UHGV virus genome: UHGV-0112180
DNA length: 64,000 nt
Reading direction: 5' to 3' (one strand)
From: a virus
Below are positions 26,255 through 61,037 of this stretch, in pieces. The notes under the pieces were generated by a model. The model searched no databases and was not told where the DNA came from. It saw only the letters and a program-made list of their open reading frames with translations. A program made the translations under genes and the position numbers. Numbering within the stretch: position 1 is the stretch's first letter; each line of letters starts with the position of its first letter.

Positions 26255-26476
26255 ATGCAATCCATTAACTTCCGTACCGCGCGCGGCAACCTTTCTGAAG
26301 TGCTCAACAATGTTGAAGCCGGGGAAGAGGTTGAAATCACCCGCAGAGGCCGTGAGTCAGCAGTAATTGTCAGCAAGGCTACTTTCGAAGCCTACAAAAA
26401 AGCGGCGCTGGATGCTGAATTTGCATCCCTGTTTGACACCCTGGACTCCACCAACAAGGAACTGGTTAACCGATAA
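26255..26476 (+). CDS. phd: Phd antitoxin (prevent-host-death)
   Basis: [32 protein letters not shown]... essentially matches remembered P1 Phd; stop overlaps doc start. Confidence 0.9.
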
Positions 26477-26856
26477 TGAGGCATATATCACCGGAAGAAC
26501 TTATTGCGCTTCATGATGCGAATATAAACCGCTACGGCGGCCTGCCGGGAATGTCAGATCCGGGTAGGGCAGAGGCCATTATCGGGAGAGTTCAGGCCAG
26601 AGTTGCCTACGAAGAGATCACCGACCTTTTCGAAGTCTCCGCCACCTACCTGGTGGCTACAGCGAGAGGGCATATATTCAATGATGCCAATAAGCGTACC
26701 GCGCTAAACAGTGCGCTGTTATTTCTACGCCGTAACGGGGTGCAGGTATTTGATTCACCTGAACTGGCAGACCTTACCGTAGGGGCTGCGACCGGAGAGA
26801 TATCTGTATCTTCTGTCGCCGACACGTTACGTAGATTGTATGGTTCCGCGGAGTAG
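26476..26856 (+). CDS. doc: Doc toxin (death-on-curing, Fic fold)
   Basis: [17 protein letters not shown]... with [12 protein letters not shown] Fic-like motif; essentially matches remembered P1 Doc. Confidence 0.9.
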
Positions 26857-27062
26857 ATTAATGGCACGTAGATACAACAAATTGTCCCGTGAAGCGTTAA
26901 AGATGCTTCTTGATGGCGTGAGTCGCCGCGAGGTAAAGCAATACCTGATTGGTAAGCAAATTGGCGCCAGGACCGCTATTGCTGTGTTATGCCGTCAGGA
27001 AATGGTTGTGCTTAAACAGAGAATGCTTGGTAGCAGACAAAGTGCTTCCAGTATTTGAAAAG

Positions 27063-27091
27063 AAGCCCGCCATACCAAGCGGGCTTTTTGT
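27063..27091. terminator. Bidirectional rho-independent terminator
   Basis: AAGCCCGC-CATACCAA-GCGGGCTTTTTG between convergent genes. Confidence 0.55.
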
Positions 27092-27867
27092 TATTTCACC
27101 TCTTCTGCCGCTGTATCATTGGACTGTTCTTCTTTGGCCCGTTCTGCAATCGCCGCACGGCATTTCGCCCTGGCTATAGCGATTGCTTCAGCTCGCACAT
27201 CGTCTGGAATCGTTGACGTGATATACATATCCAGTTCTTCGGCACGGAATACTGTTTGGTCCAGATATTCGCGTAGCATCCAGGTAAATTCGAAATCACA
27301 CGCGATAATCTCTGCGCTACCTTCTGCACCATTTGGGAAATGAATAAATGCCTGTTTAGCCAAACCGATAACACGACATGCGGTTGCCAAAACAGCGACA
27401 ACCAGGTTTACATTTTCACACGCTACGGGCTGATTAACGCCGGAGATTACTCCATTTAACTGTCGGTTATATGGAAGGTAGTTTGAGATGCGTTCTACGC
27501 GCCATGTGCCAGTCAGGCTGCCATTTTTAAAGATAATTGGTGTAACGGATAGCCCAAGCTCGCGTATAAGTCGTTGCGCTATAGCAGGATCATTAAACAG
27601 GTCTAATGCTACACATTCGAAAGACTGCGCAAGGGCAAACAGTTCTTCCAGAGAGTAGTCTTTGCCCCTGGCGGTGATGTAACGACGAACGCCGCTGTCC
27701 GCATCACTCCATATAGCTACGCCATGCTCTTCATTCAGTTCTTCATTAAAGCCGAGATACGTCATGATAGTGCGTTCAATCGTGTCAAACGGCAGTGACA
27801 TGTCGGCGTTAACATCCACCAGCAGACCATTACGCAAGCGGTATTGAATTGCTTTAGTATTTTCCAC
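27091..27867 (-). CDS. Hypothetical protein
   Basis: 258-aa ORF. Confidence 0.4.
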   Translation of the reverse strand: MENTKAIQYRLRNGLLVDVNADMSLPFDTIERTIMTYLGFNEELNEEHGVAIWSDADSGVRRYITARGKDYSLEELFALAQSFECVALDLFNDPAIAQRLIRELGLSVTPIIFKNGSLTGTWRVERISNYLPYNRQLNGVISGVNQPVACENVNLVVAVLATACRVIGLAKQAFIHFPNGAEGSAEIIACDFEFTWMLREYLDQTVFRAEELDMYITSTIPDDVRAEAIAIARAKCRAAIAERAKEEQSNDTAAEEVK

Positions 27868-27873
27868 GTTAAA

Positions 27874-28536
27874 TCACTCCACTACAAACCAGTCACATGC
27901 CAGTAAGTCGCCTACAGAAGGAACCCACGGAACAACTACACCTTGTGCATTTTTTAAGGCGAAATAAGCACCATACGGAACGAGGTCGCCGGGGAAATAT
28001 CCCTTAATGGCTTCCATTCGTGCCGGGTACTGTCCTTCAGGAACCAGCCAGCAGAATTGGTTTTCACCGTTCCACCCGCGTCGAGCAACTTTCTTTCCTT
28101 CCTTCAGCCACATCAGCGCGTCAGAAAAGTCGGCTGCTTCAAGGTCGATTTCTTCTTGCTGGGTGGTGATGCCACCAGCAGAAATAGTTACGCTTCCGGA
28201 AATATTAATGTTCACGCCGTTGTCATCCGTAATGATGACCGTGGTCCCATTTTCGGAGGTGTCGTTAACCCGGCTATAGCATTTTTCAAATGCTTTCTCT
28301 GGCACATAGACCGGATAGCCATTTTCAGCAGTGACGAGATATCCTCCTATTTGCGGTCGGAATCTTTCCAAGAACACACCATCAACACGAAGCGTCATTC
28401 CTTTTGGCTCAACGACTTCGATACTGCCCAAAATGGGCGCATCAGTTTCGCCGACAATAACAATATCTTTGATTTTCGATGCCCGAATGATGCTGTGGCT
28501 TTTGTATTTGGGGAACACCTGAAAAGTGCTAGCCAT
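27874..28536 (-). CDS. DUF2829-domain protein (Tad2-like C-terminal domain) with an N-terminal beta-rich domain
   Basis: C-terminal FSDALMWLKEGKKVARRGWNGENQFCWLV...VVVPWVPSVGDLLACDWFVVE fits the DUF2829 signature. Confidence 0.5.
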   Translation of the reverse strand: MASTFQVFPKYKSHSIIRASKIKDIVIVGETDAPILGSIEVVEPKGMTLRVDGVFLERFRPQIGGYLVTAENGYPVYVPEKAFEKCYSRVNDTSENGTTVIITDDNGVNINISGSVTISAGGITTQQEEIDLEAADFSDALMWLKEGKKVARRGWNGENQFCWLVPEGQYPARMEAIKGYFPGDLVPYGAYFALKNAQGVVVPWVPSVGDLLACDWFVVE

Positions 28537-28550
28537 AATCTTTCCTCTAC

Positions 28551-29045
28551 TTAAAACTTTTCGTACTGAAGCGGTGTACGCTTGATTTCAACGCGGTCTT
28601 CCGATGTACTACCAAAGCCACCAGCACCTCGCTCTGTTTCATCGAGTTCATCAACTTCTACCAGCGATACCGGTTCAACACGCTCAAAAATGCCTTGCAT
28701 GACAGCCATTCCAGGCTTGAGGCAAATGCCTTCCCCGCCGGGATCAGCAATCAGTTTTGCCATGATTTCACCGCGATAATCGGAGTCGATAATTCCTACG
28801 CAGTTAGCCAGGCGAGTATGTTTTTTGCAGCCCAATCCGGATCGTGGATAGAGTTTCAGACACCAGCCGGGCGGGATCTCCATAGCCAGTCCGGTATACA
28901 CCCACCAGCTTGAGGAAATTGCACCATTGCTATCGACGCATGGTTTTATTTCAACAGCCTCAAAATCCATCGCCGCCGATCCGGAGGTGGCATAAGCTGG
29001 AAGTTTTGCTGCCGGATGTAGGCGTTTCACTTTTACGTAAATCAT
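28551..29045 (-). CDS. dut: dUTP diphosphatase (dUTPase)
   Basis: Conserved dUTPase motifs RSGLG, GIIDSDYRGE, and C-terminal GAGGFGSTS. Confidence 0.8.
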   Translation of the reverse strand: MIYVKVKRLHPAAKLPAYATSGSAAMDFEAVEIKPCVDSNGAISSSWWVYTGLAMEIPPGWCLKLYPRSGLGCKKHTRLANCVGIIDSDYRGEIMAKLIADPGGEGICLKPGMAVMQGIFERVEPVSLVEVDELDETERGAGGFGSTSEDRVEIKRTPLQYEKF

Positions 29046-29518
29046 TGTTTTTTAGCTCTCTGCGTGAAGGTGTAAACCCGACGTTTGATATGTGGAACGG
29101 TAGGAACAGGAAGACAGGAACTTTCAATAACCCCTTGCTCCTCCAGCGATCGCACCGCCCGCAAGAACTGCGACGTGTCGCCGCCAAACTGGCGGGCATA
29201 GGTGCTGCCGTTAAGAAGTATTTGAGCTATTACCCGAGCTTTTGTCTGGCTGTCACGATATGCGAATAGCCGCACGGCCTCTTCTGGCGCAATCGCTAAC
29301 TGATAGCCTTTCCCGGCACGGTGTCGAATGAATCCATGCGCCAGTAGGTTTTTGAGTTCGTTACGAGTGCGAACAGATCCGTAATCCAGGAAGTGTGGAT
29401 TGATAACGACTGGCTTAAACCATTCCGTAGGTGCTTTAGATAATAGAGCTAACAGCTTCCCGGATAATTCTGGATAGGAAGACGGGTAACAATTCAGAGA
29501 TGGGTAATAAGTTTTCAC
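29042..29518 (-). CDS. Hypothetical protein
   Basis: 158-aa coupled ORF. Confidence 0.35.
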   Translation of the reverse strand: MKTYYPSLNCYPSSYPELSGKLLALLSKAPTEWFKPVVINPHFLDYGSVRTRNELKNLLAHGFIRHRAGKGYQLAIAPEEAVRLFAYRDSQTKARVIAQILLNGSTYARQFGGDTSQFLRAVRSLEEQGVIESSCLPVPTVPHIKRRVYTFTQRAKKQ

Positions 29519-29859
29519 CGACGCCCCCTTGCAGGATATCGACCTGCATTAGTATCCGGTGCAATAAAGCCGGTAGTGGGGCGAGTGAAAGCGAGATTAA
29601 TCTTCTCGACCATAGTGCGATAATTTTCCTGATAGTGGGCCAGGAGTTTTTCGGCGGCAATGATGGTTACTTTCCGGACGTAGCTTTCTGCTTCCTCCAG
29701 ATTTCGCCAGTTTTTTTCGAGGGTAAACACAGGGACGGCCTCAAGCCCGGTCATGATGCCGAACACAACGACAGCATGACTGTTCTTAACACCAGCGGCG
29801 AAGGTTACGGTGTAACCATCCACCTTGAAGCGTCTTGATTCCGTGATTTGACTCTGCAA
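29515..29859 (-). CDS. Hypothetical protein (P1 cra position, downstream of recombinase)
   Basis: 114-aa ORF. Confidence 0.3.
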   Translation of the reverse strand: MQSQITESRRFKVDGYTVTFAAGVKNSHAVVVFGIMTGLEAVPVFTLEKNWRNLEEAESYVRKVTIIAAEKLLAHYQENYRTMVEKINLAFTRPTTGFIAPDTNAGRYPARGRR

Positions 29860-29932
29860 AGCACCCTCCTAAATAGGCGAGGGTACTTTACAGCAAAGAC
29901 GTTAATCTAAAAAGATGTGTTAGAAATTTAAT

Positions 29933-30961
29933 TTACGAATCCATCAGGCGGCTATTAGCCCCCACAGACACGCCGCCACGGCGAAGATACCGCATAAGTG
30001 TTTCCGGTTTCTTCCAGGTTCCTTCCTGCATGATCTCCACCATAGACACCTGCTTTTCAGCCATATCAATAGCGGCCCCGACGCGTGCACTATGCCCGGT
30101 CCACGTCCGGTATCTTCCTTTGTTTGGCGTAGCATCTCTTTTATTCAGCAACACCCAGGCGTCGCTGAATATTTTCTCCATTGCAGGTGCAGTAAGGGGC
30201 GTTATCGTGATCCTGGCCTTATTGCTACGGTGTATCGGCGGGAACAGCACTGCGTCAGGATGTTCGCGAAGCCCGGAAACATCCAGCCAGTCATTCAGCA
30301 CAGCGGTAGTGCGACGGGAAAGCACCTTATCAAGCCCGGCGGCGGTCGTTATTGTCTTCGTGTGTGAAATATGTAGCGTGACAGTGTCACCTGTTTGGTC
30401 CAGATCTCCTACACGAATACGCGAGATTTCCGACATACGCATCAGCGTATTGTATGCAACAAAGAGAAAAGCCCGGTTGCGCAGGTCCACCAGCCGTTCT
30501 GACCTGGACAACAGGACGTCGAGCAGTTTCAGATCGTCCCACCGCAGCGGTATAGCCTGGCCTGTTCGTTCGCCTTTTTCCGTTGCCGCTTCACGCCGGA
30601 TGCGCCGCATAGCCAGAGAAACACTTTTATCATCCGAAAGTGGCGGAAGGCCACAATGCGAAAGCAGCATGTTAAGCATGGCGTAGTGCTTATCAATGGT
30701 GGTCGAAGCCAGATCAGCATCATGCAGCTGAAGAAAATACTCGCGGGCCATCTCTGGTGAGATCGGGAACCAGGCGAGCTGGCGAGCGTGACACCATCTC
30801 GCCCAGGAGTGAAACACTAACCGGAGATCGCGCAAAGTATTCGGCGCATAAGCCCCCTGGTCATTCATGAACCGCATAAAGTTTTCTGCGGCCTCCTGGT
30901 ACTCTTTGCCAATGTTGCGCAGAAAACCACCGGAGCTGCCAGAGATAATTAATTCACTCAT
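29933..30961 (-). CDS. dre: Cre-family tyrosine recombinase, Dre-like (phage D6 type)
   Basis: 342 aa; aligns to Cre over LSVCRSWAAWC/LVFHSWARWC, MRRIRKE/MRRIRRE, and catalytic region TWTGHSARVGAAIDMA...MRYLRR (Cre GHSARVGAARDMA...MNYIRN); adjacent rox-like site. Confidence 0.85.
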   Translation of the reverse strand: MSELIISGSSGGFLRNIGKEYQEAAENFMRFMNDQGAYAPNTLRDLRLVFHSWARWCHARQLAWFPISPEMAREYFLQLHDADLASTTIDKHYAMLNMLLSHCGLPPLSDDKSVSLAMRRIRREAATEKGERTGQAIPLRWDDLKLLDVLLSRSERLVDLRNRAFLFVAYNTLMRMSEISRIRVGDLDQTGDTVTLHISHTKTITTAAGLDKVLSRRTTAVLNDWLDVSGLREHPDAVLFPPIHRSNKARITITPLTAPAMEKIFSDAWVLLNKRDATPNKGRYRTWTGHSARVGAAIDMAEKQVSMVEIMQEGTWKKPETLMRYLRRGGVSVGANSRLMDS

Positions 30962-31113
30962 GAAACTATTTCACCTCTATATACAGATGACGCTACGCGA
31001 AAAATATAAAAATGACAGGGTAGCTATAAGTTAATTTTCAAAATACAACCCTTTGATTCGATGCACGTATTTTCAGTGATGTCAACACTGTTCATCTACA
31101 CATGATTATAGCC

Positions 31114-31145
31114 TAACTTTAAATAATGCCAATTATTTAAAGTTA
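31114..31145. other. rox-like recombination site (lox-family target of the Dre-like recombinase)
   Basis: TAACTTTAAATAAT-GCCA-ATTATTTAAAGTTA: perfect 14-bp inverted arms, 4-bp spacer, about 150 bp upstream of the recombinase gene; matches the rox site as remembered. Confidence 0.75.
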
Positions 31146-31355
31146 TAAAATGCCGATTTTTTTTAATCCATCATAGATTGATGATGACCAGTAACACGTT
31201 GCCTTCATGGTCTTTAATTTGCGAAGTGTGGTTTCTACGGTTGGTTTTCTAAAATTGATGACAAAAAATCACAGTTCGATCCTTTACTCACTCTGTTATT
31301 CGACATAAATTTGTCATAGTAATTTTATGTTAGAAAACTAAATCGAGTAGGAATA

Positions 31356-35790: not shown

Positions 35791-36183
35791 CTACCAGCGA
35801 GACAAACGAACAACATGTTTCACTTTTGCGATCCACTGTCCGCGATAACTATTGATTACGGCCTGTGCCAGCTTCAAATTGGCTTCAAAATCAGCCTTAC
35901 TACCATCAGACTCCACCAGCATTCCTCCATCTATTTCTGGTAAACATAGATAATCCTGCTCAACCTGCAGCGGCATTGATGGCTCTCTGAATGGGGTTAC
36001 TTGCTCTGCTTTCCAGCGAAATCTAACCCTTATCCCCCTGGTGGTCATTACTAGATAGCCTGTTATAGTGCTTTTATGGCCCACATCAGTACGCGTGGCA
36101 TTGCATGACACGATCTTACAGTTAGCGATAGACCACTCCATATTGGTGGCCTGTTGAGTGCTTAATTTGGTAGTCCCGTACAT
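35791..36183 (-). CDS. Hypothetical protein
   Basis: 130-aa ORF. Confidence 0.3.
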   Translation of the reverse strand: MYGTTKLSTQQATNMEWSIANCKIVSCNATRTDVGHKSTITGYLVMTTRGIRVRFRWKAEQVTPFREPSMPLQVEQDYLCLPEIDGGMLVESDGSKADFEANLKLAQAVINSYRGQWIAKVKHVVRLSRW

Positions 36184-36758
36184 CAGAAAGCCTCCCAGTC
36201 AGTCGCGATAATATCCACACCAGTTGCAAACCAGTCTGTCTGCGCCTGTAAATCACCATTCATCATTACCAGGCGAGGCATCACCATCACATCGCACCCT
36301 TCCACAATATCGAATGCCTCTTCCGGCAAGAATTCGAAGAGCTTTTCTTTGCTGCCAATGCTGCCACGGAACATCGATATATAGCTCCCTTTAGGCCATG
36401 ATGTCCGCCGGGCATCAAGCCCTTTCATCATCCAGTAAAAAGCCGAGGAAAAAGGGATATTCTTTTTGCCAATGATTACATTATTCGCTTCTGTGTACTT
36501 CAGGAACTTAACTAACCTTACCATTGACTCGGATAACGCAACGTATGGCTCATGATTGATTGCTGACACGCTTACACCGTGCAATCCAACGCTTACCACT
36601 GTCATATCGCCGCTCTGTGCGGTTTCGATATTGACGCCTTTGCGAACTAATGAGGCGTAAAGTTCCTCTCGCTTTTGGGTCCAGCGTTCCCGCTTCCCTA
36701 TGAAGTCACTCAAAATGAGATCTTCTTCTGCATATGCGTTATCGTTCGCCATTAACAT
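36183..36758 (-). CDS. Protein with DUF2829-like (Tad2-like) C-terminal domain
   Basis: AFYWMMKGLDARRTSWPKGSYISMF...TDWFATGVDIIATDWEAF resembles the DUF2829 signature. Confidence 0.4.
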   Translation of the reverse strand: MLMANDNAYAEEDLILSDFIGKRERWTQKREELYASLVRKGVNIETAQSGDMTVVSVGLHGVSVSAINHEPYVALSESMVRLVKFLKYTEANNVIIGKKNIPFSSAFYWMMKGLDARRTSWPKGSYISMFRGSIGSKEKLFEFLPEEAFDIVEGCDVMVMPRLVMMNGDLQAQTDWFATGVDIIATDWEAF

Positions 36759-37212: not shown

Positions 37213-37288
37213 TGGTGGCCCCTACCGGACTTGAACCGGTGACCGTGCGATTATGAGTCGCCAGCTCTAACCACTGAGCTAAGGGGCC
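37213..37288 (-). tRNA. tRNA with CAU anticodon (Ile2/lysidine-type, ileX-like; Met not excluded)
   Basis: GGCCCCTTAGCTCAGTGGTTAGAGC...GACTCATAATC...GGTTCAAGTCCGGTAGGGGCCACCA; 7-bp acceptor stem, canonical D and T arms, encoded CCA. Confidence 0.8.
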
Positions 37289-37297
37289 AATTAGTTT

Positions 37298-37411
37298 TTA
37301 TTTTCGACGCCTGAGATTCTTCGCTACTTGTTCTACTCCGTATACGATCACAAGCAGAAATAGCAAAGACCATCCAGGGTTCTTATCAATATACGTCCAA
37401 AAATCCATCAT
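37298..37411 (-). CDS. Small membrane peptide (37 aa), tci-operon member
   Basis: MMDFWTYIDKNPGWSLLFLLVIVYGVEQVAKNLRRRK; start overlaps upstream stop (ATGA). Confidence 0.25.
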   Translation of the reverse strand: MMDFWTYIDKNPGWSLLFLLVIVYGVEQVAKNLRRRK

Positions 37412-37572
37412 GAGTTCCTGAACGCAGCTTTAATAATCGGCAATAGCAATACCACAGCTACTGAAACCAGTGCCCCATCAGCCAACACCGACATCACTTT
37501 GCTGGTGAAATCCACCAGCACGGACAAAACGAGAAAACCAATGGCGCACGCAATACGCGCCTTGCCAATCAT
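37408..37572 (-). CDS. Small membrane protein (54 aa), tci-operon member
   Basis: MIGKARIACAIGFLVLSVLVDFTSKVMSVLADGALVSVAVVLLLPIIKAAFRNS; start overlaps the TerB-like stop (TAATG). Confidence 0.35.
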   Translation of the reverse strand: MIGKARIACAIGFLVLSVLVDFTSKVMSVLADGALVSVAVVLLLPIIKAAFRNS

Positions 37573-38006
37573 TACAGATAATCTTCCACACGAAGGCCCA
37601 AACGACGGCCTACTTCTTCCAGTACTTTGTGTTCTGCTGGCTCGATTTCACCGTCCGCTTCTGCAATCGTCAGCATGTTAACGAATACTTCTTCCGCTTC
37701 TTTTGGATCATTTTTGATATCTTCAATTTCGCGAAGGATATTCATGCGACCAACACGGAAACCAGCTTCCAGTTGCTCAGTAAAACGGGTGATTGTTGCG
37801 GTAATTTCGTTGCCAAAATGACTTAAGCGAGGATTAGAGCGGACAAGCTGATCAAGTTTCGCTGTTTCTTCCTTTTCGATTTCACCATCTGCGGCAGACA
37901 CCAACAAACAGCCACCGATAATGGCCTCCATCAGATCGCGATTCTCAACCCTTTTCAGCTCTACTTTTGCTGAAGCGACTTTCTTACCGAAAAATTTACC
38001 GAACAT
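37572..38006 (-). CDS. TerB-family tellurite-resistance-like protein (P1 TciA analogue)
   Basis: Two AADGEI / AEADGEI TerB-type repeats in a 144-aa protein. Confidence 0.65.
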   Translation of the reverse strand: MFGKFFGKKVASAKVELKRVENRDLMEAIIGGCLLVSAADGEIEKEETAKLDQLVRSNPRLSHFGNEITATITRFTEQLEAGFRVGRMNILREIEDIKNDPKEAEEVFVNMLTIAEADGEIEPAEHKVLEEVGRRLGLRVEDYL

Positions 38007-38273
38007 TGGTTATCCCTCAATAAACATGACGTATTTATTAGGTTGCGGTGCCTGGTGCCTCCAGGTGACGTTAACCAGTTAACAATTAACGCCGGGATGT
38101 TTGACTTAACCACTAAGGAGGATTGTTTTAACTGTTCCGCGTGCGCATAGCCGCATTCACCGCAATGGTAAGAGCACTTGGCTGGCTGGGCGGCGATGAC
38201 GCCTGTACGCATTTGGTGATCCGGTTCTGCTTCCGGCATTCGCTTAATTAGCCAAATACTCTTAACGTTGCAC

Positions 38274-39054: not shown

Positions 39055-39057
39055 ATT

Positions 39058-39144: not shown

Positions 39145-39149
39145 TGAAT

Positions 39150-43659: not shown

Positions 43660-46600
43660 TTAGGCCGCATCGGCGATTATTTTACGCAGTTCATCTACCG
43701 AGTAACGCGTAGATACCATCCATGCAGGACGGTCAAAGTTCACATCAGCAACCGGGTTTGCTTCAAAATTCCAGAAACGCCCGCCAATCTTCTTAATCGC
43801 GTCTTTGGCGTTCCGTATTGTCGAGGAACCTGGCTGGTCGGCAATGAGATAAACCGCGCCAACGTCTTCGCTGACGCTCCACCAGCGCCCGCGAACACGC
43901 GCCTTAGCGCGAATCGGCTTATCATTAACCACAATGATATAGTCATCATTCGCCGCTTCATCAGCTCTTGCTTCAGCCACTGCCGCCTGCTCTTCTCTTT
44001 TGCTTTCAGCCTGCTCAAGCCTTTTCGCGATCTCTGATTCAGTGGCCCCGCCGTTTTTCAGCGATACATAGTCCTGCCACGTTGCCGATTTGAGCGCATC
44101 CGGCAACTCATTCACATAGTCGCCGTCTTTCAACTCACGGGCGCGACGGGTAGCCATTTCTACCAGGCGATTAACAGAAACAGCATCAGCAAAATCGTCC
44201 TTACTAATGTGTTTTTCATCAAATGCATTGATGACAGCCCCAACCTTAATCCACTGTGCTGCCGGTGATTCCAAGGGGTTATCAGCCTGAACAATGGCGA
44301 GTTTCGCTCCATCTACCCCATTATTCGCCAGCTGTTCCAATGCCGCCCATCCATCTGCATCACTGAGTGATTTATATTGCTCAAACAATGCATCGCGCCA
44401 GGCCACCAGCGCAGAACGTGTTTTTTCGATCTTCGCCTTAATTTTCGCGATCTTGACCTGATTAAACATCCGTTCAATATCATCGATATTGCTAAAGGCT
44501 TTCATCCTGCCCTGGAATAAACGGTATGCCAGCACGGTCCTCCAGAATGATTCCAGACCTTCTCCGGACGGTTTACGGAACAAGCTAAGAATATCTTCAG
44601 AAGTGACTTTATTAAGCGAACGACCTGACAGACCACGCCCAGCCATCCAGTTTTCGAACTCCTGGGCAACATCATCCATCGTTGCTTGTGCGCCCCATGC
44701 CTGCATTCCCTGGATGTAATCATACCCATACAATGCCTGGAGGAATCCCTCTCCGTCCACGATATTCAGCGGATTATCACTGGCTTGTATTTTTGCCACT
44801 TCACGCTTCAGCGCCTCATTGTTGATATCAGGGTAAATCCACTGCTCTGGTGCAATATCCGATGTACGCCCGATTTTCTGTCCTATCATGCCATCATAGG
44901 TCGATGACAGCGCGATCTGACCATCATCTGTGCGATAAGCCCAGTATTTAATAGCTGACCCACCGCCCCATGCATTACCAGGTTTACCAGCAATAACATT
45001 CATTACCCCATTGCGAATAGCATCATAGAACTGATCGCGAGTAAGTATTGTTGATAGCTGGTGGCACTGAACACCACGCGCAGCCGTTGCGCGCGATTCA
45101 GCTACCCCCTCTTCAAAAGTTACCGCTTCAATCACAGAGTCAAACGGCAATGTAACGATTGACCCCGGTGCTCGAGCGTAACGACTTGCTCTATCCAGCC
45201 AGGCGATACGGCAGAGGTATTGTGCTTTTTCACCGTCAATTTTTTCCACCCGGACAATCGCTGTTGTTTCGCGATCATCAATGACTGCACGGTAATAACT
45301 ACCTTTATGCAACAGGATATTCTTGTCAGTGCGCATATATTCCTGTGGGTTCTGAATAACATCGATACTGATATCCAGCACACCAGACTTAATAGCGCGC
45401 TCCACATCACCACGAGAGCGTTTCATTATGGTATCCGCGTCTTTTGCCCTGGTGATCGCAAACCGCAGCACCCGCGCACGTTTTCTGTAGCTACTCAACT
45501 GCTCAAGCGCGTATTTTTGCCCATTCCTGTTCGTACCCGCTTTTATCAGGTCGTCAAGATTGCGCTGGTAATACTCTATCTGTTCCATCGCGCTTTTCAG
45601 TTCTGTCTCCATCATGCCGATATCTTTTCCGGCGGCGTTTGCCGCTTTCAGGTAGATATCGAGAGCATTGTTGGCCTCGCGCTGTGCTTTCAGTTTCAGA
45701 CGTTCTTCACGCTCTTGCGCCTGGCGAGCCATGATTGCGCGGCGTTCTTCCGGGTTTGCCGCCAGCATAATGGCGCGTTCATCAGCATCATCCGCATCAC
45801 CATTGGCGATCTCTGACATGTCGGAGGTCATCACCATCTTGATCCAATCTTTCTTACGTTTCAGCGTATCCAGACGGAAGTCGTCGAATGTGCCTTTGCC
45901 ACAATAGTAGTGAACATTGACCTTCTCTTGCGGTGAACCTACGCGCGCACCGCGCCCATTTCGTTGGTCGATACTGGCTGGTGTCCAGGGTAGTGTCAGG
46001 TGGTGGATATCGGTTGTCCCGATGTGCAGGTTAATACCTACTTCAGCCTTCTTGTTACAGATTATGATACGCGTGCGACCTTCGTTATAGTCGGCGGCAA
46101 TACCTTCCATGCCCTCAAGGCCAGCATCATTTTTAGCTGAGAGATAATCCTCATATTGGGCAAGTTTGCTGTAGTAGGTTTCCCATGCCCCTTCTTTGTA
46201 TTCACCGTTTTTGTTTGGAGTAGGTTCGGTCGGCTTATTCACCTTCTTCAGCTTGATGCCGCCAGCCTGGCTAACTGTCGTTGCATTGATAATGCCAATC
46301 TCCTGCTCCGGCATTTGCAGTGCACTGGCGATAATACGGCGCAGCTTCTGGTGCTGGGCTTTTTCATCAATAAAGACGATCTGCTTACCGTTCTTCAGAC
46401 CTTCACGAAGATTTTCGATCAGCGCGGCATACTTCGGCGGGATGGGGTGCGATACCTGCTGCATATCAATACCGGCAGCCGCAATGGCCTTAAGTATTTC
46501 AGCTTCCAGTTCAATGCTGGCACGTATTTCAACATGCGTCGGATGTTCACTAAAAGCGGTCTTCACTACCTTGCTGGTACGCGTACTGACCAGCCCGCCA

Positions 46601-49600
46601 GCGCCGTCTTCCTCGGCCTCATCAACATCATCTGCCACTTTACCGCCAGCTACTTTTGGCAAGGCATCAGCAATAGCTTTTACCTGGTCTGCAAGCTCAA
46701 CGGGGAACTGGAATGTAATCGCACTGGCATACAGATCCGGGTCTATAGCAACCTTGTCCATGTCACGGATGATGGAGAAGATGAAATCATCCGGTTTGTC
46801 GTTAGTGATATGCCCGTTTTCATCGACTGTCAGCTCATCATTGCGACTTAACTCCTGAGCACGCTTACGAAGCTCTTCATAAGCAGTCTCCTGCTCCCCT
46901 GTCATCGGGATCTGCAAGGTGTTCTCAATGATGTCGGGAATTTTAACCGTTGCTCCGACATCTGCAGCAGTCTTCAGAGTGGTCCAACGATGGAAAATAC
47001 CACGCAGGCCGTCAAGGTTCTGGAAGCCCACCAGCCCCTGCTTCTCTTCCACTTCCCCGGAAATTTTCTGGACCTGAACTGTGGCTGTTTTGCCAAACAC
47101 ACGAACGAAATCATCAGGCGTAATGATGCCCATGCGCATCCACTCTTCCTGCGGAATGACAGTAGACAGCATGTTGAAGGCATCAATCGGACTGTTCACC
47201 AGCGGAGTTGCCGTCAGCATGACTACACCACGCCCGTTGTTGCGTTTCATCATGTACGCAGCTTTTACAGCCATGTCGCGGGCCATCTTGGATACTGCCG
47301 GGTTAGGCAAATATGCCAGTTGTCCCGCTTCACGCCCGGCATTAAAGGAGTTGCGGTAGTTATGCCCCTCGTCGGCAATCACGCTATCGAAGTTCATATC
47401 CTCAAAGTACGGGATATTCTGCTTCTTCGTTGTACCGGTATTCGCGGCCTGATCCTTAATCTTGTTCTTCTTCTGCGCATCACGGTGTTTACCGGACGCC
47501 AGGTCAAGACGCCCCATTTCCACAGCATTAAAGACAGCTTGCTGTGAGTTCTCCTCGATGGTTTTTTCTCGTAGCGGGATAGACGCGAATTGTTCTTTTG
47601 TCATGATGACCGTTCGCCAATTTGACGACGGGATCATGTTCATGCGCTGAACGATAACGGCGCTGGCGGACTCTTTCACAACATTTCTGGTAAGAGGCTG
47701 CCCGTTACTGTCGAGGCGTGGTTCGCCATTTTCATCAAGCACCGGCGCGGTCAGAATATTTCCGCTGTCATCACGAACTTCATCCAAACCGATAAACATC
47801 ATATTGGCGAAGGCATCAGCACTGTAGAAACTCTGTGCCTCGTGATACCAGTTCTGATAAACCGCCTTCGGAACAACAATACACGTGCGTTTAGTGCGAC
47901 CTGTTTCGAAGTTATACGCCTCAAGCGCAAGCGCGGTCGTGGTTTTACCCAGCCCGGTACCAAATCCCATGATGCCGCGCCCATCTTCTGACAAGCGCCG
48001 AACTTCTTCATTCTGATAAGTAAGAGGAATGCGCTTTCCACTAAGCCCTTCCAGGCCAAGCGGTGCGTCAGAATGCGTGAACGGAATGAAACCATTGAAT
48101 GCGTCGTTATACTCGCGGGCTATCTGATCAGCCTGCGGGTGAGTGCGTAACCAGTCGTTAAAACTAACTTCCAGTTGAGCAATTTTATCCAGGTACTCGT
48201 TAGCGTTCTGCCCACGCGGTTTAACACCGTTCAGGTAGTTTTCTAACTGGTTCAGGAAGCCGTCTTTATTGTTGGCCTTCTTGAACTCATTCCCGTTTTT
48301 GCCGTTTACGGTTCGTAGCTGATAGCCGGTAAATACCCCGTCCTTACCTTCGTAATCGTCCGGAGATACCAGAATGCCATCGACGACCTTCAGATCAGGT
48401 TCAGTGTACTTAAACTCGTCATAGCCCTGCTCTGCCAGGAACTCTTTTATCAAGCGGCGATCCAGCCAGCGGGCATTCAGATTAACGGTGACTTTATTTA
48501 GTGGCGTGAAAATACGTTTCTCTTCGATTTTCGCCAACTGACGCTCAAAGTTCGCTTTCTGCTCACCTGTTGACGCATCACGCCAGCCCATCAGCAATGC
48601 TGTTTTGGTTGCAATATCGCCGCTGGTGGCGCGGTCCATCGGCAGCAGGCAGCCATACCCATCAATAGCGATATCATCAAATTTCGCCAGGTATTCAAGG
48701 GCCGCGTCGTCGTCCTCTGGCAGTTCACCAGCAAACGCCTCACGAAAGTCTCCCAGCGTTATAGGATTAAGGGCTACATCACTGAAAAGATGTGCTATCA
48801 CTTGTTCAGGACGTGTAAAGTCAATACCGGCAGCACCATCCGTTACATCAAGTCGCCCTGCCAGAAGGTCAGAAGTGGAACCATCCTGTTTCACATTGCC
48901 AGTGAACGTCATCCAGTTTTTAGCGCCAGCTTCAGCAAGCCCATTCAGCTTAATGGCGTGCGGTGGCCCATACTTCGCAACTTCTGCTGCCGCCAGGCGG
49001 GATGCATCTGCCAGTTTGTCATCAACGTTCACACCCAGGTTACGCAAATCAAGTGCCTTGTTGATCAACTGACCTATCAGCGCACCGCGCATAACGCGCT
49101 CCCTGTCTTTTTCTCGCTGCTTGCCAGCAAAGCGAATCATTGCTGCCACTTCATCACTGACAACCGATGGATAGTCGGACGCGATCGCCGATATCTGGTC
49201 CCATGACAAAGCCAGAATCCCGTTTGTTGACTGGAACGCGATCTGCAGATCGCCAAACGTCGAAACACCATATCGACTTACATCAAGCGCGGAGGATTTG
49301 GTTGTCGTGTCCTTAACCCATTTCAGACCATCAAACTCATGCCAGATACCGCCTACAAGGCGTTTATCGCCCACTTTCGCGCCCTGCCATGCCTGAGTAG
49401 TTACGCCGAGCAAATCCCAATTGATGCGACTATCAAAGCGACGAGATAGCGCGGTTTTCATCGACTCATTGGATACACGACCGTCTTTTTTCACCACCAG
49501 GGTATTGCGGAAGCTGGTACGTTCCATGTCGCCGTAAACAAATCGCTTCCCTTCGGTTGTAAACCATTTTCCTTTGAGGAAGGTATCCCAAAGGACGTTT

Positions 49601-50496
49601 GCCGATTTGAGTGTTGAATCATCCGTGTCGGGGATCATCTCCAGGAAGGTTTCCGGGTGTTTACGCAATACCCATACGTCCACCACGGTATCTGTACCGG
49701 ATTCGCTGAACGTACCGGAAGGCATACGATGTGCGCCCAAAAATTCCGCTTTACGGCTGACTTTATCGCGCAATTTTTTATATTTCGCACCATCGGTCAT
49801 GCCATTTGGCACCACCAATACGATAAGCCCACCAGGCTTAACCTTGTCGATCGTGCGCAGCACAAAGTAATTGCCAACGTTCTTCTCGTTTGCATATGCC
49901 GGATCAAGCCCGGCAACGCCGGAACGCCCTTCACCAAACGGTACGTTACCAACAGCGTGGTCATACATTGCATCTTTCGCCGCCAGCGCCTCAAACGCCC
50001 CGATATTCACATCGTCTTCCGGGTGCAAAAGCTGGTTTATTCGACCAGAAATCGGAGACAGTTCGGCGCTGGTCATTATCATGCCCTGCCGTTTTGTCTC
50101 CTGGAAAATACCTGTGCCCGCTGATGGTTCCAGTACGTGCCCGCCATCAATACCGTAGTCAGCAAACAGATCCCATATACCTTCAGCCATAAACTGTGGC
50201 GTGTAGTATTCGTATTGGCTGCCCTCACCATCTGTCAGGCCGCCTTCACCGGTATACCCAGCAAGAATCTGACGTTGTTCGTCAGTTAATTTCGCCCCAT
50301 CGAAGCCGGGCGGAAGGGAATTAAGAAGATTTACTGCGGCATTGTTTGCTGCCCGGCGTGTTTTCTGAATACTGACGCCATCGGCTTTCCTGACGCCAAA
50401 GGTCGCAACAGCACGTAATTTATGCAACCGACTAACAATTTCAATCAGTTCGCCTAAGCTGGAGGCTTCACTGATTGAATGAAGTAGTTTGTCCAA
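43660..50496 (-). CDS. darB: DarB-like giant methyltransferase-helicase (P1 defence-against-restriction type)
   Basis: 2278 aa; N-terminal N6-adenine MTase motifs (VLEPSAGTGIF, GNVPFG); DExH helicase motifs (GTGLGKT, VIADEGHNYRN); size matches P1 DarB. Confidence 0.8.
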   Translation of the reverse strand: MDKLLHSISEASSLGELIEIVSRLHKLRAVATFGVRKADGVSIQKTRRAANNAAVNLLNSLPPGFDGAKLTDEQRQILAGYTGEGGLTDGEGSQYEYYTPQFMAEGIWDLFADYGIDGGHVLEPSAGTGIFQETKRQGMIMTSAELSPISGRINQLLHPEDDVNIGAFEALAAKDAMYDHAVGNVPFGEGRSGVAGLDPAYANEKNVGNYFVLRTIDKVKPGGLIVLVVPNGMTDGAKYKKLRDKVSRKAEFLGAHRMPSGTFSESGTDTVVDVWVLRKHPETFLEMIPDTDDSTLKSANVLWDTFLKGKWFTTEGKRFVYGDMERTSFRNTLVVKKDGRVSNESMKTALSRRFDSRINWDLLGVTTQAWQGAKVGDKRLVGGIWHEFDGLKWVKDTTTKSSALDVSRYGVSTFGDLQIAFQSTNGILALSWDQISAIASDYPSVVSDEVAAMIRFAGKQREKDRERVMRGALIGQLINKALDLRNLGVNVDDKLADASRLAAAEVAKYGPPHAIKLNGLAEAGAKNWMTFTGNVKQDGSTSDLLAGRLDVTDGAAGIDFTRPEQVIAHLFSDVALNPITLGDFREAFAGELPEDDDAALEYLAKFDDIAIDGYGCLLPMDRATSGDIATKTALLMGWRDASTGEQKANFERQLAKIEEKRIFTPLNKVTVNLNARWLDRRLIKEFLAEQGYDEFKYTEPDLKVVDGILVSPDDYEGKDGVFTGYQLRTVNGKNGNEFKKANNKDGFLNQLENYLNGVKPRGQNANEYLDKIAQLEVSFNDWLRTHPQADQIAREYNDAFNGFIPFTHSDAPLGLEGLSGKRIPLTYQNEEVRRLSEDGRGIMGFGTGLGKTTTALALEAYNFETGRTKRTCIVVPKAVYQNWYHEAQSFYSADAFANMMFIGLDEVRDDSGNILTAPVLDENGEPRLDSNGQPLTRNVVKESASAVIVQRMNMIPSSNWRTVIMTKEQFASIPLREKTIEENSQQAVFNAVEMGRLDLASGKHRDAQKKNKIKDQAANTGTTKKQNIPYFEDMNFDSVIADEGHNYRNSFNAGREAGQLAYLPNPAVSKMARDMAVKAAYMMKRNNGRGVVMLTATPLVNSPIDAFNMLSTVIPQEEWMRMGIITPDDFVRVFGKTATVQVQKISGEVEEKQGLVGFQNLDGLRGIFHRWTTLKTAADVGATVKIPDIIENTLQIPMTGEQETAYEELRKRAQELSRNDELTVDENGHITNDKPDDFIFSIIRDMDKVAIDPDLYASAITFQFPVELADQVKAIADALPKVAGGKVADDVDEAEEDGAGGLVSTRTSKVVKTAFSEHPTHVEIRASIELEAEILKAIAAAGIDMQQVSHPIPPKYAALIENLREGLKNGKQIVFIDEKAQHQKLRRIIASALQMPEQEIGIINATTVSQAGGIKLKKVNKPTEPTPNKNGEYKEGAWETYYSKLAQYEDYLSAKNDAGLEGMEGIAADYNEGRTRIIICNKKAEVGINLHIGTTDIHHLTLPWTPASIDQRNGRGARVGSPQEKVNVHYYCGKGTFDDFRLDTLKRKKDWIKMVMTSDMSEIANGDADDADERAIMLAANPEERRAIMARQAQEREERLKLKAQREANNALDIYLKAANAAGKDIGMMETELKSAMEQIEYYQRNLDDLIKAGTNRNGQKYALEQLSSYRKRARVLRFAITRAKDADTIMKRSRGDVERAIKSGVLDISIDVIQNPQEYMRTDKNILLHKGSYYRAVIDDRETTAIVRVEKIDGEKAQYLCRIAWLDRASRYARAPGSIVTLPFDSVIEAVTFEEGVAESRATAARGVQCHQLSTILTRDQFYDAIRNGVMNVIAGKPGNAWGGGSAIKYWAYRTDDGQIALSSTYDGMIGQKIGRTSDIAPEQWIYPDINNEALKREVAKIQASDNPLNIVDGEGFLQALYGYDYIQGMQAWGAQATMDDVAQEFENWMAGRGLSGRSLNKVTSEDILSLFRKPSGEGLESFWRTVLAYRLFQGRMKAFSNIDDIERMFNQVKIAKIKAKIEKTRSALVAWRDALFEQYKSLSDADGWAALEQLANNGVDGAKLAIVQADNPLESPAAQWIKVGAVINAFDEKHISKDDFADAVSVNRLVEMATRRARELKDGDYVNELPDALKSATWQDYVSLKNGGATESEIAKRLEQAESKREEQAAVAEARADEAANDDYIIVVNDKPIRAKARVRGRWWSVSEDVGAVYLIADQPGSSTIRNAKDAIKKIGGRFWNFEANPVADVNFDRPAWMVSTRYSVDELRKIIADAA

Positions 50497-58109: not shown

Positions 58110-58478
58110 TTACCCGGCATAACCGTTAGCTTTCACCCAGCTTATGGTCTGCTCTTTAGCCTGCTCCAACGTAAGGAACTCGCCAACATAGTTTGAGATC
58201 CCACGCAGCGCATCAATAAATTCCATTTGTGTGGACTTTGTGAAGACACCGCCCAGGAAGTCAGTCACTATCTTAGGGACTTCATCTACAACAGGATCAG
58301 TCTGTTGTTGCGGTTCCGCTGCCGGTTGCGCGGCAGTCCCCAGGCCCAATTTCAGCATCACATCAACAATCTGCTTACCAATGGTGACGCGTTGCAATAC
58401 TGGCGCAGTTTTCTGCGCCTGCATTAGATCTGATAGCTCTTTACCTAATTTCAGGCGGTCTAAAACAGAGATGGTCAT
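58110..58478 (-). CDS. Hypothetical protein (dar-operon region, DdrA-like size)
   Basis: 122-aa ORF. Confidence 0.3.
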   Translation of the reverse strand: MTISVLDRLKLGKELSDLMQAQKTAPVLQRVTIGKQIVDVMLKLGLGTAAQPAAEPQQQTDPVVDEVPKIVTDFLGGVFTKSTQMEFIDALRGISNYVGEFLTLEQAKEQTISWVKANGYAG

Positions 58479-60415
58479 TAAGCACCTCCCTGCTGAATTT
58501 CAGCCAGAATGTTGATCAGGTAGTCAACTGCTGCACCAACAGTGGCTTCGTTCTCGTCGTATCGACCTGCACTGATTAGAGCGTTTGCTGCTTCCTGCAC
58601 ATGATCAAGTTCAGCACTAATGACCGTCAGATCGCGGGATGTAAACTGCTCCGGCACGGATTTCAGGTACTCCAGTGCTTTATCTGCCTCCTGATCAGCT
58701 TCATTTGCTGATTCACCCGTTTCTTCTGGCTCCTGTTCTGGTGCTGGTTGTGGTTGTGGTTGTGGTTGTGATTCTGGCTCAACCATATGCTCTGTTTTTA
58801 CTTCGCTTGAATGATTTTGAAGGGCGTTATACACGTCCATAATGAAAAGGTTCTCCCCATCACTAAGTGGATACGCCACGTTTGGAAACGCTTTGCGGAA
58901 AAGAATTTTCACTTGCGCCTTGAATGTTTTCAGGTCACTGCCAAACAGGTCCACATAGCCATCAATATGTTTCGACATGCTGGACGCAACCAATTGGTCT
59001 GCAAAATCTTTCAGCTCATCTTCATCAGGAAGATAGAGCAACTCGTACTGGCTGACTTCTTCATCTGTCAGTTTACGGTCATACGTAATGATACCGTGAC
59101 GAGCATATTCGTAATACTGATCAGCCTGGTCAGGACGATCAAGCACGGCTTTATTTCCATCCGGAACAGCACCAACACCAGCCGGGCGAGATTGAAGTGC
59201 ATAGTGGTATTTACCTACATCTTGGCTCTCTGGTTGTAATACTGGGTTCGTTTCGGGGTCTGTCTGTGGTGGTTCGGAGTCTTCCAGCTGGCCTGGTAAC
59301 ACATCAACTTTATATTTATCTGCGTTATGCTCTCGGTAGGCTTTAAGTAATTTGGTTGCAGCATCTGCCAAACTGCCTCCTTTGACAGCACTGGCATCAA
59401 TACTGAATTTACCTTCAGGTGCTACTATCGTAACGAAATTATCACTGCCGGACGTGACATAATTAACTTCAGCTCCATTATCCAGCACTGTTTTTCCGTC
59501 AATGGCAAGATTATGTTTTACATGTCGCAGCTGGTCACTAAACGCTCGTTCTTTCGTTTTTTCACCTTTAGCAGACAACAATTTATCGCGTTTTGCTTGT
59601 AATTCCTCGTTGATGGCTTTCTGGGCATCAAGTTTTTTTTGCATCTCCGTAAGAGCAGCACGCTTTTCAGTCAGCCCACGTTGCGCAACTTCCACCTGAT
59701 CAATCATTATTGACCGTTCTTCTGCCAGTTTATCTGCTTCATTGAGATAACTCTCAATATCTGCCTTCATTTTGTCCTGGCGCTCTTTTGCTTTCTTAAA
59801 TTTTTCGCTGTTACGCTCAATCAAATTAGATAGCGCCTGGCATACCTGGCTTAAAGAAACATCTCTCCCACCAATCGGGGCGACAACGTGAGTTACGTTA
59901 CGTTTATTAAGTAAAAACTGAAATGCAACAAGCTCGTCGTTACTCTTTATTTTTGCCCCGTCAGCTGTTGGAGAGTGGAAAATTATGCTTGTACTCTGCC
60001 CGTCAGTAAGCGGTATCTGCGCGGTCAAAACAGGGATATTAGCTACCCGACGTACACGACCGATAATCGCACCACCAATACAATTACGTCCATTTTCATC
60101 GGTCCCAGCTTCATCAGTCCCTGCCATAATATTCGTACCATTCAGGCCACGATTCAGCGCACGGACGAAAGCTCGCATTGTTTGAGCTAACCGAATTCTG
60201 GTTGTAGTTATGGACTCAAACATAGCTTCGTCAGACACAACCAGAATTTCATTGCCCATATAGGCAAGCTCAATATCTTCTAAGGTCGCCGCCTCAAAAA
60301 TCAGGTCATCTTCGCTTAATTCTTCTGAAGACCAGCGACTTGGCATATAGCCGGGGATCGTATCAGCAAAAGTAGACTGAATATTAATTCGTAAAGGATT
60401 GTTAATCATGCTCAT
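58478..60415 (-). CDS. Large coiled-coil protein with acidic QPQPQP repeat (P1 darA position)
   Basis: About 645 aa; start set at MSMINNPL with GGAGG upstream; central coiled coil. Confidence 0.35.
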   Translation of the reverse strand: MSMINNPLRINIQSTFADTIPGYMPSRWSSEELSEDDLIFEAATLEDIELAYMGNEILVVSDEAMFESITTTRIRLAQTMRAFVRALNRGLNGTNIMAGTDEAGTDENGRNCIGGAIIGRVRRVANIPVLTAQIPLTDGQSTSIIFHSPTADGAKIKSNDELVAFQFLLNKRNVTHVVAPIGGRDVSLSQVCQALSNLIERNSEKFKKAKERQDKMKADIESYLNEADKLAEERSIMIDQVEVAQRGLTEKRAALTEMQKKLDAQKAINEELQAKRDKLLSAKGEKTKERAFSDQLRHVKHNLAIDGKTVLDNGAEVNYVTSGSDNFVTIVAPEGKFSIDASAVKGGSLADAATKLLKAYREHNADKYKVDVLPGQLEDSEPPQTDPETNPVLQPESQDVGKYHYALQSRPAGVGAVPDGNKAVLDRPDQADQYYEYARHGIITYDRKLTDEEVSQYELLYLPDEDELKDFADQLVASSMSKHIDGYVDLFGSDLKTFKAQVKILFRKAFPNVAYPLSDGENLFIMDVYNALQNHSSEVKTEHMVEPESQPQPQPQPAPEQEPEETGESANEADQEADKALEYLKSVPEQFTSRDLTVISAELDHVQEAANALISAGRYDENEATVGAAVDYLINILAEIQQGGA

Positions 60416-61037
60416 CCTCCAGGCGCGCGATTTCTTCTTTAAGAGCACGTGTCTTAGCTACTTCCTGAGACAAGGCAGCTTTAACATTACCCGTATCTTG
60501 CATTACTTTGTCTGACTTGCTCTGGAGTTTAGACAGTTTGTCGTTAGCATTAGCGATATCTTCACGGAGTGCATCACGTGATTCTTTCGCTTCAGCTAAT
60601 TTCTGAGCGTTAGATTTAACTCCCTGCCGCTTCTTATTTCCGTCATCAATATTTTTTGCTGCACGAGCAAGTTTTCGAGCTAATGACTTCTGGAAAGAAG
60701 TTGCTCCACGATTAAATAAAGCCGCAAGAGATTGCCCCAAAGCCGACATTGTTTTTACTGGCTTGAACGGTACTGTTTTACCATTCAGTTTGATCCCAGA
60801 TATATCACCGGTATCGTTAACCTGAACTTCCATTGTCTGTTCATCAATACCAATAAGGGTAAACGTGCGCGTCATGATCCCATCTTTCTTCCTGCCATTA
60901 CTTGCAGGGATCACCCTCGCTATCTTGTAACCACCTTTGCTGATTTCTTTGACGAGTTTTGCCAGCCCCTTTTCGTTTAACTCATCATAATTAAGAAGAA
61001 CATAATTATTCTTATTTGACATCCCAGTCTCCTTCAC
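60402..61037 (-). CDS. Hypothetical protein (P1 hdf position)
   Basis: 211-aa ORF with K-rich coiled-coil C-terminus. Confidence 0.3.
   Translation of the reverse strand: MKETGMSNKNNYVLLNYDELNEKGLAKLVKEISKGGYKIARVIPASNGRKKDGIMTRTFTLIGIDEQTMEVQVNDTGDISGIKLNGKTVPFKPVKTMSALGQSLAALFNRGATSFQKSLARKLARAAKNIDDGNKKRQGVKSNAQKLAEAKESRDALREDIANANDKLSKLQSKSDKVMQDTGNVKAALSQEVAKTRALKEEIARLEDEHD

Follow-up and report, generated by a model that had tools for sequence, protein, structure and literature searches.

In a 64,000-nucleotide stretch of the virus genome UHGV-0112180 (hereafter the window), two genes on the minus strand encode proteins with a C-terminal DUF2829 domain, a family also called Tad2-like (PF11195). 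Judging from its sequence matches, the window is a D6-like, P1-related phage-plasmid. We consider it likely that both are conserved accessory genes and that their products, protein 1 (27874..28536; 220 residues) and protein 2 (36183..36758; 191 residues), are two-domain proteins ending in a Tad2-family sponge domain. For protein 1, sponge function is a strong inference from homology; for protein 2, it is plausible but weaker. Protein 1 is already labeled a DUF2829 protein in public annotation. What goes beyond earlier knowledge is the Dec-like OB family to which its N-terminal part belongs, with recurrent fusion to four sponge families; a second, divergent Tad2 paralogue specific to D6-like elements; and a cassette polymorphism of the insert that forms a pocket in related sponges.

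The Tad2 domain of protein 1

A first-pass annotation of the window, made from its letters alone, had proposed that the C-terminus of protein 1 fits the DUF2829 signature, that protein 2 ends in a similar block, and that both carry extra N-terminal domains. Profile searches bear this out. Protein 1 matches PF11195 over residues 136-219 (E 1.3e-22, 80.5 bits) and protein 2 over residues 103-190 (E 1.1e-9, 39.1 bits), against a curated gathering cut-off of 25 bits, and about 100-130 residues precede the domain in each protein. Matches of this strength lie well outside what chance would give. The gene for protein 1 is preceded by the ribosome-binding site GAGGAAAG, its product matches phrog_872 over its full length, and homologues occur in 298 PLSDB plasmids.

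Residues 132-220 of protein 1 (27877..28143, minus strand) span all 89 residues of ModTad2 (PDB 9eib/8v3e; phmmer E 2.5e-21), and the insert between strands β2 and β3 aligns to that of ModTad2 with a single one-residue gap. Weaker alignments were obtained with HgmTad2/AcrIIA7 (8kbi, E 6e-12; 9kzr, E 3e-11), with the Tad2 of SPO1 (E 5.5e-10, about 34% identity) and with SptTad2. An AlphaFold2 model built from 56 homologues has a predicted local distance difference test score (pLDDT) of about 90 at residues 134-220. The best Foldseek match of the modeled domain is ModTad2 in complex with histidine-ADP-ribose (His-ADPR; 9eib), at 47% identity, E 1.6e-9 and a target-normalized TM score of 0.78; 24 Tad2 chains in all were matched with E <1e-5. 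In both sequence and model, then, the C-terminal domain falls in the Tad2 family, and within it in the ModTad2 clade: protein 1 is nearer to ModTad2, extended β2-β3 insert included, than to the Tad2 proteins that act on type I Thoeris.

SPO1 Tad2 holds its ligand with W25, N26, W73, S76 and D79. All five are kept in protein 1, as W155, N156, W204, S207 and D210, and W155, W204, S207 and D210 are invariant in the 56 homologues. Four other SPO1 residues that contact the adenine or coordinate water (T65, D67, H71 and T78) are replaced by N, Q, V and G, respectively, and the specificity of protein 1 would therefore differ from that of SPO1 Tad2. The first-pass annotation had described the fold as that of sponges binding Thoeris signaling molecules. 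The fold stands for protein 1. The ligand was drawn too narrowly, since ModTad2 binds cyclic UMP and cyclic CMP (cUMP/cCMP) in addition to His-ADPR and is inactive against type I and type IV Thoeris; the ligand of protein 1 thus cannot be named from sequence.

Variation and selection in protein 1

We compared protein 1 with an allele that is 88% identical to it overall; the ratios of non-synonymous to synonymous substitution (dN/dS) given here for protein 1 come from this single pairwise comparison. The Tad2 domain differs by 10 nucleotide changes but only two amino-acid changes (dN/dS 0.07). The linker that precedes it is mosaic, with 17 of its 39 residues differing. In the N-terminal domain, eight of nine changes are non-synonymous, for a dN/dS of about 2.3, a value that comes from small numbers.

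Within the Tad2 domain, the β2-β3 insert (27960-28075) is polymorphic in a different manner. Among the 60 closest clusters at 90% identity, it is occupied by three unrelated cassettes between flanks that are otherwise near-identical. Cassette A (VPEGQYPARMEAIKGY...) is ModTad2-like and is the window's type; cassette B (VLAGSVNLHGIH...) is short and is accompanied by a change of the GWNG motif to EWKG; cassette C (VPDKQGASRLTPIKHAANGDLEINFDSPL...) is long. The second pocket of ModTad2 and HgmTad2 is formed by this insert, so a swap of cassettes plausibly adjusts specificity, and the three exchangeable pocket cassettes amount to a natural experiment on the evolution of sponge specificity.

The N-terminal domain of protein 1

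Residues 1-92 (28261..28536, minus strand) are modeled as a small β-barrel (pLDDT 85-90), and residues 93-131 (28144..28260, minus strand) as a β-rich linker of four short strands (pLDDT <65). Neither Pfam nor NCBIfam has a match in this part of the protein. Its only solved relative is the OB domain of Dec, the decoration protein of phage L (6e3c). The single sequence finds Dec with a phmmer E-value of 9e-4, in an alignment that continues into the Dec stalk, to residue 120; Foldseek returns it at a probability of 1.0 (E 3.8e-3), and a profile of the N-domain family at E 4.1e-5.

This family is large. An exhaustive HMMER search with residues 1-127 returned 697 representative clusters at E <=1e-3, with a consensus of LPxYKCHKxVxAxKI ... 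KHxPxxGGYxVxYEDGYxSYSPAxAFExGY. Among the matches listed with the domain located, 59 of 147 are essentially stand-alone proteins of 85-130 residues. A Pfam scan of 142 representatives found the domain joined to Tad2-like domains (8 cases), PF21825 (7), PF13876 (2), the Acb2/Tad1 hairpin PF24729 (2), DUF551 (1) and DUF7130 (1). Of these, PF21825 corresponds to the Sequestin sponge and PF13876 to Acb4; Sequestin itself was discovered through its fusion to Tad2 and Acb4. Fusions of the N-domain family thus involve four independent families of sponges: Tad2, Sequestin, Acb4 and Acb2/Tad1. These architectures were checked on individual proteins, and in P0201 and P0090 the order of the domains is reversed.

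In IMG/VR, 452 contigs encode a relative of the N-domain. Six of 60 diverse loci among them are fusions (three to Sequestin, three to Tad2), and three further loci have a Sequestin or Acb4 gene within 4 kb. On contig 3300020577_000325 (L074:2968-4177), an Acb4 gene directly precedes an N-domain-Tad2 fusion, and the two make up a compact multi-sponge locus. Most copies of the domain stand alone with no known sponge nearby. Canonical stand-alone copies are found in Ralstonia phage GP4 (L007:2486-2761; 91 residues), between the portal and major capsid genes, and in E. coli phage Bas106 (L006:2498-2785; 95 residues), after the lysis genes and beside a Rha-like regulator. PHROG scans of the genes beside stand-alone copies gave a mixed, uninformative picture (methyltransferase, radical SAM, terminase-like), and Pfam scans of the neighboring genes in Bas106, GP4, Klebsiella phage SopranoGao and the window found nothing. 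We also considered Lockin, a curved β protein that forms hexameric cogs and is absent from INPHARED phages, as an identity for the N-domain, and rejected it: the N-domain occurs in 27 INPHARED records, and the Foldseek list of PDB matches contains nothing Lockin-like.

The copy in the window is atypical of its family. Over the motifs CHK, GGY-V-YEDGY-SYSP and AFE-GY, it keeps 18 of 28 conserved positions and changes 10, among them K15S, Y70A, D72N, S76V, S78V and G86C; the last five positions, which are near-invariant in the family, deviate in Dec as well. In phage D6, orf114 (L002:4475-4915) has lost about residues 16-95 in frame while its linker and Tad2 domain are almost unchanged, and other alleles of protein 1 start within the N-domain. 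Because it is atypical, deleted in D6 and truncated elsewhere, the domain looks dispensable, relaxed or decaying in this lineage.

Two further matches to this region are set apart here. A giant metagenomic repeat protein of 2977 residues, P0134, contains five stretches matching residues 41-125 of protein 1 (E 3e-13); these are probably β-rich repeats that resemble the linker rather than true homologues. In P0013, a tail-fiber repeat precedes a truncated N-domain. We discounted this protein as evidence of virion association, as it reads as a recombinant chimera.

Our literature search found no paper that describes the N-domain family. It is at least as widespread as some named families; having no Pfam model, it went unnoticed in the fusion screen published earlier. 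The recurrent fusions raise the possibility that the Dec-like OB domain represents a further family of phage sponges for immune signals, or an obligate co-domain of sponges. We advance this proposal tentatively and think it somewhat unlikely. If the domain were a sponge, Dec would be a structural offshoot of an anti-defense fold, or the reverse.

A divergent paralogue, protein 2

Protein 2 matches phrog_7362 over its full length and consists of an N-terminal domain (residues 1-100; 36459..36758) and a Tad2-like domain (residues 101-191; 36186..36458), both on the minus strand. Its homologues, in 125 PLSDB records, occur only in D6-like plasmids of Escherichia, Salmonella and Shigella with a few Pantoea and Enterobacter records, and the copy in phage D6 is 100% identical. 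Its dN/dS is 0.10, with purifying selection on both domains.

A search of the PDB with the sequence of protein 2 gave no match. Alignment of its family to that of protein 1 by hhalign does link the two (probability 89.8%, E 1.8e-6, residues 100-189), and F103, A106, G113, R118, W121, W176, D182, D187 and W188 are invariant in the joint alignment. Overall identity to Tad2 proteins is about 20%, and SWPKG stands where the GWNG motif is expected. The equivalents of the SPO1 pocket residues are W121 and P122, followed by the Trp, Thr and Asp of WFATGVD; three of the five are identical, with Ser replaced by Thr and Asn by Pro. We thus regard protein 2 as a constrained, divergent Tad2 paralogue found only in D6-like elements, its membership resting on profile matches and a weak structural model. 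The N-terminal domain resembles RNA- or ribosome-binding folds of the α-β-β-β-α type. Acb4 (PF13876) was tried as an identity for it and dropped, as no profile similarity was found.

The adjacent dUTPase

The gene beside protein 1 (28551..29045, minus strand) does encode a dUTPase, as had been noted from the letters of the window. Its product is a canonical Dut of the homotrimeric type (164 residues), matching PF00692 (E 7e-14) and the NCBIfam dut equivalog NF001862 (E 1.9e-34; 118.5 bits, cut-off 103). The alignment to bacterial homotrimeric Duts, such as that of E. coli (1dud), covers the full length of the protein, through motif V (RGxGGFGST). On our reading, this is an enzyme of ordinary nucleotide hygiene without a mechanistic link to the sponges. 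We rejected the dUTPase as an anti-defense gene: neither sequence nor synteny (in phage SJ46) supports that role, and a literature search found no paper tying dUTPases to anti-defense.

In one variant, P0053 (241 residues; 15 member sequences, four contigs of up to 88.6 kb), an in-frame deletion joins Dut, up to the GAGG of motif V, to the Tad2 domain. Because the deletion takes the FGST of motif V together with the whole N-domain, the fusion looks accidental.

Genomic setting

Positions 26400-31100 of the window match E. coli plasmid pF16EC0589-1 (CP088384.1) at 100% identity and phage D6 at 97%, and at least 80% of this segment is covered in about 112 PLSDB plasmids. From these matches we assign the window to the D6-like, P1-related phage-plasmids; phd-doc-pdcA, a Cre-like recombinase, a C1-like repressor, pacA/pacB and lpa lie around the two genes. 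In CP088384.1, the counterpart of the protein 1 gene is annotated by PGAP as "DUF2829 domain-containing protein", that of 28551..29045 as "dUTP diphosphatase" and that of protein 2 as "hypothetical protein".

The gene for protein 1 belongs to a tightly packed minus-strand series of dre, orf117, orf116, dut, protein 1 and an isaA-like gene. The putative operon begins with dre, a Cre-like tyrosine recombinase annotated in D6 and CP088384 (29933..30961). Between dre and dut lie two small open reading frames (ORFs), orf116-like and orf117-like (29042..29859; phrog_6669, phrog_1968), to which no function is assigned. The isaA-like gene (27091..27867; 49% identity to P1 IsaA) is the conserved downstream neighbor of protein 1, and a bidirectional terminator-like hairpin (27060..27089, both strands) closes the unit. 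At its other end (31105..31146, minus strand) is rox, a lox-like inverted repeat known from the annotation of D6 (TAACTTTAAATAAT-TGGC-ATTATTTAAAGTTA). The best promoter-like site found, TTGGCA-16-TATAAT, agrees with the sigma-70 consensus at 11 of 12 positions and reads into dre, its -35 hexamer inside the rox spacer and its -10 hexamer just downstream of rox.

In the punavirus SJ46, the orthologue of protein 1 lies between ssb and isaA, that is, after ssb instead of dut. Since isaA adjoins the DUF2829 gene both here and in SJ46, gene order points to isaA, not dut, as its conserved partner. Phage P1 is without a DUF2829 gene; there, ssb directly adjoins isaA under the C1 operator Ossb, with IS1 just downstream. 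We considered whether P1 IsaA might be a DUF2829 protein in disguise and rejected the idea, as there is no similarity; P1 simply lacks the gene. In RCS47, the DUF2829 gene is interrupted (annotated as "part 1 | inverted repeat"), and in SopranoGao the two-domain protein adjoins regulator genes. These placements suggest early or constitutive expression of the gene for protein 1, as expected for anti-defense genes.

The gene for protein 2 lies 7.6 kb from that for protein 1, with a tRNA cluster upstream of it and a 130-residue ORF, lpa and pacAB directly downstream. The start of this ORF (35791..36183, minus strand; phrog_7004) overlaps the stop of protein 2, and the layout is the same in CP069886. 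The cluster (37213-39226, minus strand) comprises five tRNA genes (Met-CAT, Ser-TGA, Thr-TGT, Tyr-GTA and Arg-TCT), and TerB-family and DUF3927 ORFs are found at 37408-38006. Small conserved ORFs of 130, 158 and 114 residues (phrog_7004, phrog_6669 and phrog_1968, respectively) are co-oriented with both DUF2829 genes. They have no Pfam matches, and it is possible that they are further accessory or anti-defense genes. The Dar genes that the first-pass annotation mentioned are also present, as a DarB-like methyltransferase/helicase of 2278 residues (43660..50496, minus strand; phrog_10089, phrog_11801) and a DarA-like protein (58478..60448, minus strand; phrog_1926, "released from the phage upon host infection").

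Discussion

Our proposal is that the Tad2 domain of protein 1 is the selected, active part of the protein. By analogy with solved homologues, it would form a homotetramer and, in pockets between its subunits, bind a nucleotide-derived second messenger that a host defense system produces, such that the effector would never be triggered. Extrapolating from ModTad2, our best guess for the ligand is His-ADPR (type II Thoeris) and/or the cyclic pyrimidines of Pycsar, rather than 3' cyclic ADP-ribose (3'cADPR; type I Thoeris). The three exchangeable β2-β3 cassettes suggest that this specificity is being diversified. The N-terminal part would be a Dec-like OB domain with a stalk-like linker, atypical here, under relaxed or diversifying selection, and dispensable. 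Protein 2 probably binds a ligand different from that of protein 1.

Several facts weigh against this proposal. A Dec-like stalk trimer, if it formed, would clash in symmetry with a tetramer. The ligand is not readable from 47% identity, because specificity varies greatly among Tad2 proteins and, of the sponge homologues tested elsewhere, about one in four inhibited none of seven systems. The timing of expression is drawn solely from synteny and a consensus promoter scan. For protein 2, the Asn equivalent to SPO1 N26 is a Pro, and the model is of low quality (mean pLDDT 58.7), with Tad2 sequences in the alignment behind it. Foldseek returned no Tad2 match for it.

Other readings of the two proteins were weighed on the same evidence. 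Given that the only solved relative of residues 1-120 is Dec, protein 1 could itself be a decoration protein of the virion, with the OB domain on the capsid, the linker as a trimeric stalk and the DUF2829 domain at its tip, serving a purpose other than intracellular sequestration. The alignment does reach the Dec stalk; a β-rich linker modeled with low confidence as a monomer fits folding that depends on trimerization; the window N-domain and Dec share the absence of Y70, D72, S76, S78 and G86; and the stand-alone member in GP4 sits among head genes. However, the gene for protein 1 (X) is found outside the head modules, as dre-dut-X-isaA here, as ssb-X-isaA in SJ46 and by regulators in SopranoGao. 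It is the OB domain that is deleted in D6 and truncated in other alleles while the Tad2 domain stays intact, and the N-domain has a dN/dS of about 2.3 against 0.07 for Tad2. Further, a sponge on the capsid exterior would never enter the cytoplasm. We judge a decoration role to be improbable. For protein 2, a Tad2 fold without a role in immune signaling, with another ligand or partner and in the service of the surrounding late/packaging region, is a distinct possibility, if not the probable one. Its low identity to Tad2s, the lack of a PDB sequence match, the replacement of GWNG by SWPKG, the narrow distribution in D6-like plasmids, the position directly upstream of the 130-residue ORF, lpa and pacAB, and the likeness of its N-domain to RNA- or ribosome-binding folds are all consistent with this idea. 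Set against it are the retained Trp, Trp and Asp of the core pocket, the purifying selection on both domains and the fact that every PF11195 member characterized so far is a signal sponge.

The first-pass annotation had gone further and joined the two DUF2829 genes, the dUTPase and the Dar genes into a coordinated anti-defense toolkit. All of these genes do reside on one element, dut and the gene for protein 1 are adjacent and probably co-transcribed, and some isolates carry the in-frame Dut-Tad2 fusion. But the genes sit in separate units, at distances of 7.6 kb and >15 kb, and the DUF2829 genes are far from the Dar genes, so that only co-residence on one element speaks for the toolkit. The Dut is a standard enzyme, its fusion to Tad2 is a deletion that looks accidental, the SJ46 gene follows ssb and not dut, and the literature searched offered no link between dUTPases and anti-defense. 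We find the toolkit very improbable. An anti-CRISPR function of the AcrIIA7 type, which the alignments to HgmTad2/AcrIIA7 (8kbi, 9kzr) might bring to mind, earns still less credence: an anti-Cas9 mechanism was never shown, the family has been reinterpreted as sponges, and ModTad2 is a much closer relative. The enterobacterial hosts, moreover, are not known to carry type II CRISPR-Cas, which counts against this function. Least credible of all is the reading implied by the PGAP name "MW1434 family type I TA system toxin" (TA, toxin-antitoxin), which some homologues of both proteins bear (NZ_AP027414.1, NZ_CP026818.1, NZ_CP031917.1 and NZ_CP141613.1). The sole source that we found for it is a bioinformatic list for S. 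aureus in which MW1434 is a prediction, and NCBIfam release 20 has no matching model. At 191-220 residues and with the globular fold of a structurally solved family, these are not small hydrophobic peptides, and the name looks misleading for the DUF2829 family.

Clinical E. coli, Salmonella and Shigella commonly carry phage-plasmids of the P1/D6 type. If these elements express signal sponges in the plasmid state, they could disable Thoeris- or Pycsar-type immunity of the host. This, if true, could change the susceptibility of such hosts to other phages, a matter of relevance to phage therapy. The most useful lead, in our opinion, is the Dec-like domain, which carries the same "guilt by fusion" signal as Sequestin did and can be tested directly as a candidate new sponge family. 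More than once, sponges have been the means by which new immune messengers were discovered.

Comparison with known sponges and relatives

The closest characterized relative of protein 1 is ModTad2 (also MoTad2), from a prophage of Myroides odoratus, a tested sponge for the His-ADPR of type II Thoeris that also takes up the cUMP/cCMP of Pycsar, through a second pocket located at a different subunit interface. A Pycsar system is known in E. coli. The two proteins share 47% identity across the 89-residue domain including the β2-β3 insert, the same fold and the core Trp, Asn, Trp, Ser and Asp. They differ in that ModTad2 is a stand-alone protein of 89 residues, whereas protein 1 has about 130 additional N-terminal residues. 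SPO1 Tad2 (gp34.65; 8sme/8smf) and HgmTad2/AcrIIA7 (8kbi) have in common with protein 1 the Pfam family, the fold and the conserved W25/N26/W73/S76/D79, but are only 33-36% identical to it and differ at the specificity positions. Their ligand is the 3'cADPR of type I Thoeris, to which HgmTad2 adds cyclic dinucleotides; the Tad2 family as a whole covers CBASS, Pycsar and three types of Thoeris.

In its architecture, protein 1 recalls the multi-sponge fusions Acb4-Tad2, Sequestin-Tad2 and Sequestin-Acb4 (Tal et al. 2025), in that one polypeptide combines a Tad2 domain with another small phage domain. A C-terminal Sequestin domain (PF21825) is present in close homologues of protein 1, and some are triple fusions (P0068). 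Its own partner, however, is not Acb4, Sequestin or Lockin but an unannotated Dec-like OB domain. Dec (6e3c) resembles residues 1-120 in its OB fold, in the motifs P-x-V-G-G-Y-L ... A-F-E-x-x-Y and in a β-rich C-terminal stalk segment. Dec is a stand-alone, trimeric capsid cement encoded with structural genes, whereas the gene for protein 1 has accessory genes around it and its product terminates in a Tad2 domain. The neighboring dUTPase, for its part, aligns with the E. coli enzyme over the full length, motif V included, and its only notable difference is a 16-residue C-terminal tail.

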